A stretch of 64,000 nt of DNA from Candidatus Borrarchaeum weybense. GTDB taxonomy: Archaea; Asgardarchaeota; Sifarchaeia; Borrarchaeales; Borrarchaeaceae. A program made the position numbers and the translations under genes. The first letter of the stretch is position 1; each line of letters opens with the position of its first letter. Below are positions 12,130-37,481 of the stretch, in pieces. Under the pieces are notes generated by a model that saw only the letters and a list, made by a program, of their open reading frames with translations, had not been told where the DNA came from and did no database searches. The stretch spans positions 32,001 through 96,000 of the forward strand of contig JAHQJS010000008.1 in the NCBI GenBank assembly GCA_019057385.1. The letters run 5' to 3'.

Positions 12130-12723
12130 TTAAACCGCAAGTTTTTCATAACTGGATATTAGTTTCCTACGTTCTTCATTGAGCTGCCGCAATTCTGAAA
12201 GTTTCTCAGAGAATACATTTAAATTTTCAATGCCGGCGCCTACAAAATTCTCGTTTATAATTTCATTTTTAAAGGACATTACACTCTCTTCTAACGCTTT
12301 CAGTTCAGTAAGAATATTGAATTCAAGAACTCGTACGAATTTGAAATCAATATCCTCAATTTTCTTGACTTCAAAATACGTGGAAAACCCATAATCTGGA
12401 TTGGTTACGTCGTTATAAAAGTTTTCAGCCAGGTCAATAATTGAGTCCATCTGAGTCCATGAATTTAAAAGCTGTAACTCGATGAATTTTACATGGGCTT
12501 CTTTTAATGCATCTCCTATCGTAACTAATCCTGTCTTTAAACATCCTCTCACGATTTTTTCTGCGCGATTCCTACCTTCAAGATCAATATACTTTTTATC
12601 ATCTGGTAGTTTATCAGGATCAATTTTAGTAAATTCGTCTTCTGAATCACTCTTTAGCGTAATCTTATGCAGAGTGCCTTTTGACATTTTCTTGATTTTT
12701 TTCCAAACCAAATTGAAAACCAC
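12130..12723 (-). CDS. Hypothetical helical protein
   Basis: 197-aa ORF with normal composition (DYGFSTYF motif, coiled C-terminus); function not recognised. Confidence 0.65.
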   Translation of the reverse strand: MVFNLVWKKIKKMSKGTLHKITLKSDSEDEFTKIDPDKLPDDKKYIDLEGRNRAEKIVRGCLKTGLVTIGDALKEAHVKFIELQLLNSWTQMDSIIDLAENFYNDVTNPDYGFSTYFEVKKIEDIDFKFVRVLEFNILTELKALEESVMSFKNEIINENFVGAGIENLNVFSEKLSELRQLNEERRKLISSYEKLAV

Positions 12724-12828
12724 CTTGGATAATTTAGATGATTGGTAATTGTTAATCTGCTCGAAGTAAAAGTGTCTATATCATGCATTCTCTTATTACG
12801 TTTTAGGCTAAAAGCACACATACCTTAC

Positions 12829-13032
12829 TGATAACTGAGCAGGAAAGCACCAATGCTTAAGCAAAGTGATGAATTGTGTTGTGGTTATATAGCTTGTTGG
12901 TGACAAAGTTTATGAGTACCTACGGGGCGTGGGGATGTTAAGCCTGTGGAGATAAGACCTCCGTAACCTGCAAGGGGATCGAGTCTGTCATAGAAGCAGG
13001 AAGCCTAAAAGCTTTAGCACGAGATAATTCAT
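12829..13032 (+). mobile_element. Non-autonomous miniature IS200/IS605 derivative (left end + omega-RNA/right end, no protein gene)
   Basis: TTAC (12825-12828)|15 nt|AAAG + hairpin caccaatgcttaagcaaagtg + atgaattg matches the left end of the 35957-37419 element. The 3' part gcctgtggaga...agaagcaggaagcct..gctttagc..gagataattcat matches that element's right end. Confidence 0.82.
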
Positions 13033-13050
13033 CTAACATATTCCATTCTC
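12914..13050 (+). ncRNA. Putative stand-alone TnpB omega-RNA (scaffold ~12914-13032, guide ~13033-13050)
   Basis: Similar to the 3' end of the tnpB element at 35957-36100. TTATATAG at 12885-12892 upstream; T-tract at 13051-13071 downstream. Confidence 0.55.
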
Positions 13051-13074
13051 TATTTTATTTTTTTTTATTTTGTG

Positions 13075-14847
13075 CTATTCAATTTTCTTTAACTGACCTT
13101 TGAAAAGGTCGATTATTTCCTGTTGAGATGTTGCTTGTTCAGCTGTCTTATCATCCCTTATACGTCCAGTAAACCTTGGGAAACGCATAGCTAGACCGCT
13201 TCCCTTTCTTATCATATCTAAAGCACATGTATGCACTGGCGAAAGTGTTAGTTCAGCAGCTTGAACCTCTAAAACAATTGTTGGTTTGATCCATATGTCT
13301 GGAACTGTTGAGTTTTTGATAATTACTCGAGGTGGTTTCTTCGAGACGCGATATTGGTCTAATAATTTTTGAAGAGTCTCCAAATGTTCGTCTGTAAAGC
13401 CACTACCCATTCTACACACGCTTTTAAACTGATTTTCGATTGGGTCATAACACGCCATGAGAAGAGAGCCATAGAAACCTGTGCGCGCTCCGTACCCCAC
13501 ATATGCTCCAATTACAACCGCGTCGATCGTATCTGCAACTTCGCTTTTATAGTCTCTTTTAAATTTAATCCACAGCCAGCCTCTTGCACCCGCCTGATAA
13601 ATGGATTCTTCTTGAATGGATTTTGCCATAATGCCTTCGCATCCCTTTTCAACCGCTGATTCGAAAAATTCTTCTAATTCATCTTCAGAAGTTATCTCTT
13701 TTTGAACTGCAAGTCTAAGTTGTTCTGTTTCGTTTACTATCTTCTCCAGCGCTTTTCTACGAAGAGGATAGTTTTTATTTGTGAAATCTTTGTTATCAAG
13801 GTATAAAAGATCAAATAGGAAAAGATTAACTGGAATCGCTTTCATAGTTTTCTTTATTCCATATTTTCTGCGTCGATGCATTAGTTCTTGAAAAGGACGT
13901 AATTCTCCAGTTTCAACATTATATGCAACAACTTCTCCTTCTATAATTGCATTATTAGCACGAATCTGTGCTCTAACCATTTCACATACGTCAGGATATT
14001 GTTCACTAATTTCTTCAAGTCGTCTTGAAAAAATAAGCACCGTTTCCCCATCCTTGTGAATCTGAAGACGTTCTCCATCGTACTTAAATTCAGCAATAAA
14101 TGTTCCTTTTAACTTTGCAAATATTTCTTCTTTCTCTCCTGACCTTTGTGCCATCATCATACGAATTGGATGCCGAATCGTGACCTTAAAGTCTTTGACA
14201 GACTCTATTCCTTCCTTCACTAATCTTTCTGCAATTAGACCAAGATCAGACGAAATATTGAACGCTCTTTCTATTATAGGTCTATTTGTTGCATTATCAG
14301 TATAGGCAATTGCAAGTGCATCCATAATAGTCATATCCGCCATACCAAGTCTCATTTGACCTAAAATTGTCCGGATTATGTACCTAGCTTCTAAAGGAGA
14401 CGCATTTGTTAGCAATCCTGCTAATAGTTTAATCTTAGTGTCTACTGATCCCTTACCACTTGTTCTGCCTATCTTATCAAGTGTTTCTGACATGTATTTG
14501 ACATCAAGTAGCTTTGTGAACAAAGTTGTTTGTTTTTTAATTGCTAACTCTTCTTCCGCAGCCTTTCCTAGATCCCCTTTCTCTTTCATTTTTTCTACAA
14601 TTTGATTGGTAGTTAATCCGGTAGCATTTGCAATAGATTTTATTACCATTTTTTCAGCCATTCCGTATTGGAAATCTTCATAATCAGGGTAAGGTGAGCC
14701 TCTTATAAGGCCAATAACGTCACGGATATGGTCTGGAGGAGTCGCTTTAAATAACTCCACTAAATGGTTTGTCATCTCCGTTCGCTTTGACGTAACTTCT
14801 ATCTTACTCAATTTTCCTGCTAAGACCTGATATTTCACTTTTCCCAC
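13075..14847 (-). CDS. lig: ATP-dependent DNA ligase
   Basis: Motif I EFKYDGER, EGIMAK, YQAGARGWLWIKFK, RFPRF. Confidence 0.96.
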   Translation of the reverse strand: MGKVKYQVLAGKLSKIEVTSKRTEMTNHLVELFKATPPDHIRDVIGLIRGSPYPDYEDFQYGMAEKMVIKSIANATGLTTNQIVEKMKEKGDLGKAAEEELAIKKQTTLFTKLLDVKYMSETLDKIGRTSGKGSVDTKIKLLAGLLTNASPLEARYIIRTILGQMRLGMADMTIMDALAIAYTDNATNRPIIERAFNISSDLGLIAERLVKEGIESVKDFKVTIRHPIRMMMAQRSGEKEEIFAKLKGTFIAEFKYDGERLQIHKDGETVLIFSRRLEEISEQYPDVCEMVRAQIRANNAIIEGEVVAYNVETGELRPFQELMHRRRKYGIKKTMKAIPVNLFLFDLLYLDNKDFTNKNYPLRRKALEKIVNETEQLRLAVQKEITSEDELEEFFESAVEKGCEGIMAKSIQEESIYQAGARGWLWIKFKRDYKSEVADTIDAVVIGAYVGYGARTGFYGSLLMACYDPIENQFKSVCRMGSGFTDEHLETLQKLLDQYRVSKKPPRVIIKNSTVPDIWIKPTIVLEVQAAELTLSPVHTCALDMIRKGSGLAMRFPRFTGRIRDDKTAEQATSQQEIIDLFKGQLKKIE

Positions 14848-35956: not shown

Positions 35957-36100
35957 GTGAACTACCTCACGCTAAAGCAGTGAGGCTTCCTGTTTCTGCG
36001 ACCATACTTGCCTCAACGTAGGCTATCTGATTCAGATACTCCAACATTAAGGTAGAGGTATTAGTCTCCACAGGCGTGACTTCGGTAGGTCCCCTACCTA
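35957..36100 (-). ncRNA. Putative omega-RNA (reRNA) scaffold overlapping the tnpB 3' end
   Basis: taggtaggggacctacc hairpin, gcctgtggag, terminal hairpin and TTCAC end. Guide would be the flank from 35956 downward (ttataaaataagatatctca). Confidence 0.7.
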
Positions 36101-37238
36101 GTAACCTACGCCCTTCGTGTTCTAGCACACAACTGCTGTTATAATCACGGTCTATCACTAGACCACAGTGGTGACATGCATAGGTGCGTTCGGCTAAACT
36201 CATGGGGCGCTGATGACCGCAACGCGAACAAGTCTTTGTGGAGGGGAAGAAACGGTCAATTTCCACCGGTGTATGCACCTTTGTTTCAAGCATGCGAATT
36301 ATCCCACCCAGGCTGGTTGATAGCATTCTGTTACCCCATAGGCGTTGCCAGGCGCGTAAATTCTCAGTTTGATAACATACCATTTGGAAATTAATGGCAA
36401 GGAAATGAACCAGTTTATTACGAATGTCTCGTTTTATATTGGTAGTTTTGGCATATGCTTTGAGCAACTTATAGAGCGTTTTCCACCAATTCTTACTGCG
36501 ATACTGTTTACGACTTAATTGCTTACACAACTGCTTTATACGGCGTGTAACTGGCACCTTGTAGCGTATACGCACACCGTTCGACAGCGATAACTGATGC
36601 TTTACCCCAAAATCAATGCCAATTGATTGGGTTGGCATTACCATCGCCGGTCTGTGTTCTCGCGGCGTATAGGTAGTTATGGATACGTAATAATCGCCAT
36701 GCTGGTGCAGTAGGGTAGCATTGGCACATTCACAATTGGACGGTAGTTGTTCCAAGCCGTTGACACGCAGTTTTTGCGGTATCCTTTGAATGTGCAAGTA
36801 TTTCCTGTTGATAAGCTTGTAGGTATTGCCGTATTGCTTGAGCGGGATGGAATTCACATATGACTTAAACTTCAACCTCCCCACTTTACGACCCTTCGCT
36901 TTCGCACGCGCTAAGCTATGGATATTCTGTTGGGTGCGCGTGATGATGCTCTGACGCATGTGTGACGATAACTGCCCTAATTGGCGCATCTCAAACTGAT
37001 CTTTAACCTTCACTGACACGGCTGTGATTTTATCATCGATAGAGAACACGTTAGGGTGGCTAACACAATAATTATACCGCCATTTAGCTTCTAAGAATAA
37101 GCGCTTCAAGCGAATTAACGAATCTTTGTTTAAGTGCGAATGGTCTAGCTTCACGGTATACACCCGACACTTCATGTGTTTACGCCGCTCCTTAGTGTCC
37201 TTCAAGGTATTTTTGATCTGTTCGTTCTTTGTTAACAT
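35967..37238 (-). CDS. tnpB: RNA-guided endonuclease TnpB
   Basis: RuvC-I GIDFG, RuvC-II CYQTENL, Zn finger CSRC/CHHC, RuvC-III DRDYN. Likely start ATG 37238 (track 37256). Confidence 0.93.
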   Translation of the reverse strand: MLTKNEQIKNTLKDTKERRKHMKCRVYTVKLDHSHLNKDSLIRLKRLFLEAKWRYNYCVSHPNVFSIDDKITAVSVKVKDQFEMRQLGQLSSHMRQSIITRTQQNIHSLARAKAKGRKVGRLKFKSYVNSIPLKQYGNTYKLINRKYLHIQRIPQKLRVNGLEQLPSNCECANATLLHQHGDYYVSITTYTPREHRPAMVMPTQSIGIDFGVKHQLSLSNGVRIRYKVPVTRRIKQLCKQLSRKQYRSKNWWKTLYKLLKAYAKTTNIKRDIRNKLVHFLAINFQMVCYQTENLRAWQRLWGNRMLSTSLGGIIRMLETKVHTPVEIDRFFPSTKTCSRCGHQRPMSLAERTYACHHCGLVIDRDYNSSCVLEHEGRRLLGRGPTEVTPVETNTSTLMLEYLNQIAYVEASMVAETGSLTALA

Positions 37239-37481
37239 GGTATGAGTGCTCCGCACAACTTACAATAACTCGTTAATAATGTACAACATAATTGCTCACT
37301 CTGTGTACTCCATCCCTGTTTATAAACTCAGCAAAAAGTAGCACAAAGTTAAAAAATGTAAAATCCTGACACCATTCATCCCCAGGCTCAAGCAATGGGG
37401 CTTTCTTGTGTTATCTTATGTAAGCTTGCTGTTTGAGACAATCTCAAATTCACATTTTAAAAGATAAATTATCTTGCTTAT

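Follow-up and report, generated by a model that had tools for sequence, protein, structure and literature searches.

The 204-bp segment at 12829-13032 of the window, by which is meant the whole stretch of 64,000 nucleotides analysed here, is a non-autonomous element of the IS200/IS605 group, a PATE/MITE of the IS608-like type that targets TTAC. The kind is already described, and this element is one of about 37 copies in its genome. As judged from its homology to the right ends linked to tnpB genes, and from a structure conserved with compensatory changes, the right end is a scaffold of the TnpB omegaRNA type. The copy studied here, hereafter the focal copy, is an old insertion that has lost constraint and now most probably a decaying relic, unable to move and without host function.

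The boundaries of the element were obtained by comparison with related genomes. Four genomes of the same genus (G001-G004) were searched with the focal locus. In G001, G002 and G003 the orthologous flanks are directly joined as ...CTTAC|CT(A/T)ACATA..., without the element and without any duplication; the G002 empty site reads TTAT in place of TTAC. G004 carries the element at the same site, within flanks that are about 95% identical. The precise empty sites in three congeners set the bounds at 12829-13032 and indicate a scarless insertion 3' of TTAC. The element shares several properties of a PATE: it contains no gene, its ends are homologous to those of full-length members, an exact empty site exists and the copies are numerous and dispersed.

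All the features of the locus are read on the plus strand. The TTAC target site and would-be TAM (12825-12828) belongs to the flank. The left end starts with 15 nt (12829-12843) followed by AAAG (12844-12847), at the position of an IS608-like TnpA guide; the ..AAGCAAGAAAGC of this start is conserved across the short-form copies described below. A subterminal hairpin comes next (12848-12868, CACCAA / AAAGTG), in which three of six pairs remain, then the TATA-like box GGTTATATAG (12883-12892, including TTATATAG at 12885-12892) and a variable spacer (12893-12914) leading to the scaffold. The latter (12915-13032, 118 nt) is the right end of the element; it contains the terminal, guide-proximal hairpin (13004-13024, CCTAA / CGAGA, two of five pairs) and finishes with the cleavage tetranucleotide (13029-13032), which is TCAT where the family has TCAC. 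The right flank CTAACATATTCCATTCTC (13033-13050), which would be the guide if an RNA is made, directly follows TTAC where the site is empty, in G001-G003. A T-rich tract (13051-13071) lies outside the element, in intergenic DNA past the stop of a DNA ligase gene on the opposite strand. The preliminary description had placed the TTAC, the 15 nt, the AAAG, the TATA-like box, the scaffold, the 18-nt flank and the T tract at these same positions. Its reading of a protein-free, IS608-like mini-element also holds, as no ORF of at least 40 aa is found inside 12829-13032 and the ends align to those of a tnpB element. The C-G to A-T change that it had reported in the left stem is confirmed and agrees with the family consensus CACCAC-loop-GTGGTG, but the stem is reduced here to half of its pairs, and its arms are equally degenerate in the G004 ortholog.

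The element is antisense to both of its neighbors, which are encoded on the minus strand, and lies in their spacer of about 150 bp, between the stop of a 590-aa ATP-dependent DNA ligase (13075-14847; stop at 13075) and the start, at 12723, of an unnamed 197-aa ORF (12130-12723). The type of ligase and an adjacent AMP-phosphorylase-like gene indicate an archaeal host; a taxonomic comparison of the ligase in the ESM Atlas pointed to mixed Archaea and no further. The TATA-like box at 12885-12892 is nearly palindromic and is located about 160 nt upstream of the 197-aa ORF; it could in principle fire in that direction.

The family was surveyed with blastn and nhmmer in the organism's own 4.18-Mb assembly (G000). 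With nhmmer, the right-end block was found in 37 high-scoring protein-free copies with unrelated flanks. Seventeen of these are short forms of about 208 nt (206-211 bp), the focal element being counted among them, and approximately 20 are long forms (303-327 bp, about 318 nt), in which an additional inner segment is present. Eight full-length relatives carry tnpB, five in group A (about 1,460 bp, including the window element at 35957-37419) and three in group B (1,442-1,714 bp), and several fragments were detected in addition. The protein-free copies finish with ...GAGGTAGCTCAC, exactly where the similarity ceases; on the left side, 32 of 36 copies have TTAC upstream, and the similarity begins directly after it. 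Chance is excluded by a wide margin by the 37 scaffold copies set in unrelated flanks and by the empty sites in three congeners. A genome scan for tnpB-free copies, as the preliminary description had proposed, shows that the locus is not singular. At C7:698570-698624, where G004 has a complete copy (L032), G000 holds a left-end-only remnant, which is a partial deletion of a family member. In the long-form copy at C6:872235-872550, the right flank (872551-872600) resembles the 3' half of a tRNA, with a T-arm GCTGG-TTCAAAT-CCGGC followed by ...GGGGACCA; no tRNA is detected there by aragorn, whether the element is present or removed.

Conservation is unequal along the short forms. Their mean pairwise identity is 87% in the scaffold, 81% in the TATA-like box, on either side of which conservation is poor, 80% in the left-end AAAG and hairpin and 70% in the first 15 nt. 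It falls to 54% in the spacer ahead of the scaffold, the least conserved segment of the element, and to 27% in the flanks. Since all parts of one copy are equally old, this pattern suggests that the scaffold, the box and the hairpin are under constraint and that the spacer is not.

The window contains one full-length group A element (35957-37419, minus strand, TnpB at 35967-37238), which the preliminary description had used as its comparator. Both ends of the focal element do align to the ends of this element, but with a column identity of only 72-75%; closer relatives elsewhere in the genome reach 82-93%, and the close match claimed for the scaffold with 35957-36100 was overstated. The TnpB of the window (423 aa) has the Pfam domains OrfB_IS605 and Cas12f1-like TNB, and the Asp, Glu and Asp positions of the RuvC domain are apparently present when it is aligned to the ISDra2 TnpB. 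Of the tnpB genes in the genome, three in group B and four in group A are intact, and the ends of the focal element are closer to those of group B. In the group-B element at C6:305855-307296, tnpB is preceded by the left-end hairpin and the GGTTTATATAG box of the protein-free copies and by a leader similar to theirs. An inner segment of the long-form type is present in two other group-B elements. The shared left end, TATA box and leader argue that the protein-free copies descend from group-B elements by deletion, with the tnpB promoter left in place. On the basis of these similarities, the likeliest protein partner would be one of the group-B TnpBs encoded elsewhere in the genome, the parents of the family, and not the TnpB of the window that had been put forward for testing.

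The relationship between the scaffold and the group-B right end is modular. Identity is about 94% over the first 38 nt and about 80% over the last 48 nt; between these parts, a group-B stem-loop of about 30 nt is replaced in the protein-free scaffolds by a short CCC-GCAA-GGG hairpin. An alignment of 73 scaffolds was built from 37 copies of G000, 26 copies of G004 and 10 tnpB-linked right ends, and an alifold consensus was computed as well. Five stems (S1-S5) are paired in almost all of the 73 scaffolds. Stem S1 shows full CG-to-GC strand swaps at three pairs between the group A scaffolds and those of the PATEs and group B, although these represent few independent events, and the closing pair of the terminal stem S5 (pair 5) varies between GC and AT. 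The loop of stem 1 (12925-12927) and the tail (13028-13030), which could pair over three bases, read GGG/CTC in the protein-free copies and GGA/TTC in all 10 tnpB-linked ends. This G:C to A:T covariation is a single event and gives only a hint of a pseudoknot similar to that of ISDra2. The alignment of the right end to tnpB-linked right ends agrees with the omegaRNA-type scaffold that had been recognized in the preliminary description. In Rfam 15, the whole window gave no match at the gathering score, and the element gave only a chance-level lncRNA match at E<=1.

A distance of 22-23 nt separates the TATA box from the transcription start in the usual archaeal promoter. In the protein-free copies, the TATA-like box stands 22-23 nt before the conserved scaffold in an archaeal host, and a transcription start near 12914 can be fairly predicted for the family as a whole. 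The guide RNA with its own promoter that had been proposed is reasonable at this level; transcription from the box and the use of the product by a TnpB are both predicted activities of the family.

The comparison with G004 also shows that the family has moved recently. Among 26 G004 copies taken with their flanks, 18 map cleanly onto G000: 13 lie at sites that are empty in G000, four are shared and one corresponds to a left-end remnant. Since 13 of the 18 mappable copies are absent from G000, the family has been mobile since the two genomes diverged. The focal copy belongs to the small set of older insertions common to both genomes and predates the split between G000 and G004.

The focal copy and its G004 ortholog differ at 11 of 204 positions. 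When these differences were polarized with the other short forms, nine were assigned to the G000 lineage (12904, 12931, 12969, 12990, 13007, 13024, 13027, 13028 and 13032), seven of them being GC-to-AT changes; one was assigned to the G004 lineage and one was ambiguous. Between the two genomes, the total divergence of the flanks is 4-6%, which means that the focal copy has changed at or above the rate of its flanks and the G004 copy below it. The right end of G004 keeps the consensus CCTCA...CGAGGTAGCTCAC (stem CCTCA / CGAGG) where the focal copy reads CCTAA...CGAGATAATTCAT. The preliminary description had seen the replacement of TCAC by TCAT as a break of the right-end stem; the substitution is confirmed, with the correction that the hairpin itself is broken too. 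A terminal stem with two of five pairs is a state absent from the other 72 scaffolds, and the focal copy ranks 30-32 of 37 by its distance from the right-end consensus. Stems S1-S4 and the possible pseudoknot are intact, the two changes in stems 1 and 4 yielding G-U pairs.

The degeneration of both end hairpins, together with the change from TCAC to TCAT, makes the focal copy probably immobile, as the preliminary description had suspected. With its TATA box undamaged, the copy may continue to be transcribed, and its RNA might retain the capacity to bind a TnpB. The loss of mobility and of function in this copy is presumed from comparative sequence data. The lack of conservation across the genus, and the nine changes on the lineage of the focal scaffold against one in its ortholog, are the outcome that the preliminary description itself had named as refuting its proposal and as indicating a simple deletion relic. 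Five of the nine lineage changes lie in the terminal 26 nt of the element (P about 0.001 in a post hoc binomial test). This clustering could reflect a selection for immobilization, a relaxed constraint on that part alone, or a gene conversion of the G004 copy towards the consensus.

Targets of the presumptive guide were searched in several collections. In the organism's own genome, blastn-short returned no second site, only partial matches of 13-16 nt, none of which combined a matched TAM-proximal part with TTAC; TTAC followed by the guide had no match in viral contigs. In metagenome contigs, TTAC followed by 16 identical nt was found in six contigs representing two distinct sequences, neither of which is an orthologous empty site. 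The expected number of chance matches to a 20-mer in this collection is about one or two by a rough estimate. One sequence lies at the end of a bacterial Fic gene beside trigger factor, a chance-level match that was rejected as a target. The other, in a freshwater phage-like contig (L047-L051, e.g. L047:520-539, minus strand), was likewise judged to be due to chance; this contig encodes Acb1 (anti-CBASS), NUMOD3, NUDIX and Thg1-like genes. The search for TTAC plus guide in genome, metagenome and viruses, which the preliminary description had called for, gave no second target beyond chance.

The T tract at 13051-13071 had been described as a terminator of the guide-RNA gene. It is present, but it is a flanking sequence that existed before the insertion, as the empty sites contain it in a form shorter by about 10 nt. 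Runs of five or more T located 10-45 nt past the right end follow 16% of the family copies and 11% of random TTAC sites, which is no enrichment, and a terminator proper to the family was rejected on these two grounds. An oligo-T tract could nevertheless stop the archaeal polymerase accidentally at the focal locus. As regards the RNA itself, one wetland metatranscriptome contained 9% of the words sampled from the locus. Its contigs cover only 12915-13023, with seven mismatches, and their flanking sequences are those of a long-form copy that belongs to a different locus or organism; these are the sole related metatranscriptome contigs, and no RNA from the focal locus was seen.

Several other explanations of the focal copy were weighed against a decaying relic. 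The most substantial of them is a selfish guide-RNA gene that no longer moves and still works: transcribed from its TATA box and loaded in trans by a group-B (or group-A) TnpB, its RNA would direct the cutting of empty alleles (TTAC plus flank), and the element would persist or spread by homing without TnpA. The intact TATA box, the preserved stems S1-S4 and putative pseudoknot, and the supply of intact tnpB genes of both groups, with RuvC residues apparently present in the TnpB of the window, all fit this explanation, and the empty alleles of the congeners do carry a near-identical target of the guide. The related long-form scaffold seen in RNA-library contigs can be added to this list with little weight, as it consists of contigs from another locus for which a carry-over of DNA is possible. 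In ISDra2, however, the WED domain of TnpB holds stem 4, the one next to the guide, and the pseudoknot involves base -3 (PMC10097598); it is the hairpin equivalent to stem 4 that is broken at three of five pairs in the focal copy, uniquely among the 73 scaffolds. With a load of lineage substitutions at or above the level of the flanks, and no RNA seen from the locus, a working selfish gene is considered unlikely. A more far-reaching variant would be a selective immobilization with the RNA retained, leading to an early, fixed guide gene independent of TnpA, loaded in trans by a group-B TnpB and on its way to domestication. It is based on the five of nine changes that hit the hairpin and the cleavage site recognized by TnpA, together with the survival of the TATA box, of S1-S4 and of the putative pseudoknot through changes that preserve the structure, and it appears very improbable.

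The preliminary description had suggested a step towards a domesticated RNA-guided system. A fixed guide-RNA gene that serves the host in defence or regulation, with its TnpA-recognition end deliberately inactivated, would account for the clustering of the lineage changes at this end, for the preservation of the upstream stems and for the maintenance of the insertion in two species-level genomes. This explanation is hardly credible for an ordinary member of a recently mobile family of about 37 copies, absent from three of four congeners, whose ortholog retains a consensus right end that looks mobile. In addition, the guide is a plain insertion flank with no second target in the genome, no viral match and only chance-level matches in metagenomes, and the TnpB of the window has, as far as its residues tell, the appearance of a normal nuclease and not of a dead binder. 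A last explanation, in which the insertion matters mainly as cis-regulatory DNA, the TATA box or the structured DNA altering the expression of the flanking minus-strand genes, draws on the position of the element in the spacer of about 150 bp between the ligase and the 197-aa ORF, antisense to both, and on a TATA sequence that reads alike on the two strands. As the site is indistinct from the other 36 or so insertion sites and the congeners cope without the insertion, such a role seems highly doubtful.

The family would have arisen by internal deletion of group-B tnpB elements, with retention of the left end (TnpA guide and hairpin), of the TATA box that formerly served to express tnpB, of a short variable leader and of a streamlined 118-nt scaffold. 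It would constitute a mobile cassette made of a promoter and a guide RNA, the movement of which would depend on a Y1 TnpA acting in trans. A TnpB, presumed to act in trans as well, would re-cut the vacated site (TTAC plus right flank), so that the element would be copied back; for the focal copy, this target would be TTAC followed by CTAACATATTCCATTC. The focal copy itself would have been inserted before the G004 split and would then have lost constraint in the G000 lineage. The assembly contains only one Y1 tnpA (C7:194221-194586), and no PATE-type ends were found near any tnpA in G000 or G004. The tnpA gene lies in a complete tnpA plus tnpB element (142 aa and 427 aa; C7:194100-195900, L001), the ends of which are unrelated to the mini-element family. 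In comparison with this single tnpA, about 41 matches to the TnpB TNB domain were counted in G000.

The principle of such elements is already in the literature. PATEs often encode omegaRNAs that TnpB uses in trans, as reported in Geobacillus stearothermophilus (Meers et al. 2023, PMC10055086). The PATEs of that organism share with the present family the lack of an ORF, the ends of a tnpB element, a high copy number, a scarless location beside a 4-nt target and a right end carrying an omegaRNA scaffold that needs a TnpB made elsewhere. The present family differs by its archaeal host, by a TATA-type box that precedes the streamlined scaffold of 118 nt by 22-23 nt and by two size classes derived from two parent subtypes, and the focal copy differs by the loss of its end hairpins. 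With IS608 of Helicobacter pylori, which is moved by a Y1 TnpA in the peel-and-paste mode, the resemblance extends to the TTAC found 5' of the left end, the succession TTAC / 15 nt / AAAG, the subterminal hairpins at both ends of the family consensus, the absence of target duplication and the exact empty site. The right-end tetranucleotide is TCAC in the family (TCAT in the focal copy) and TCAA in IS608, the hairpin sequences are unrelated, and a tnpA with matching ends, as in IS608, was found neither in G000 nor in its sister G004.

The scaffold itself is best compared with that of ISDra2 from Deinococcus radiodurans, in which the functional core of the omegaRNA corresponds to the last 116 nt (PMC10097598). 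In both cases the scaffold is the right end of the transposon and its flank the known or presumed guide, the size is similar (a core of about 116 nt against 118 nt), a hairpin lies next to the guide and the last few nucleotides of the scaffold are engaged in a pseudoknot, a putative one in the present family. Unlike ISDra2, the present scaffold stands apart from any tnpB and the would-be TAM is TTAC instead of TTGAT; no sequence similarity to ISDra2 and no Rfam match were detectable. With TldR and other domesticated systems derived from TnpB, the only common ground is a guide RNA untied from transposition, whereas no nuclease-dead partner, no conserved non-self target and no genus-wide locus were seen here and the scaffold is decaying. 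Reduced to a compact cassette of the ends, a TATA box and a minimal omegaRNA of 118 nt, the family illustrates cleanly, in an archaeon, how guide RNAs can part from nuclease genes. The scaffold being its best-conserved part, it fits the published idea that homing by TnpB also maintains elements devoid of genes, and the focal copy illustrates their ordinary fate, the loss of end structures and an AT-biased decay. The dated pair formed by the intact ortholog and the decayed copy could act as a natural mutant for the scaffold requirements of TnpB and TnpA.

Other sites are occupied in both G000 and G004. The site C4:389088-389405 carries a long form (318 bp) in G000 and a short form (209 bp) in G004 (L034, contig C57, near 1411-1620 of the locus); both flanks are 90-95% identical and the right ends of the two copies are nearly identical. 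This exchange could result from an independent re-insertion at one TTAC, from a deletion in situ or from a recombinational replacement between copies. In the shared insertions C4:1151362-1151675 (paired with L017) and C4:1163914-1164123 (paired with L028), the scaffold differs by 3-5% and the left part by 15-20%, and in one of these pairs a flank is 99% identical. These values suggest either a constraint on the scaffold or its homogenization by gene conversion, or else a turnover of copies at the same site.
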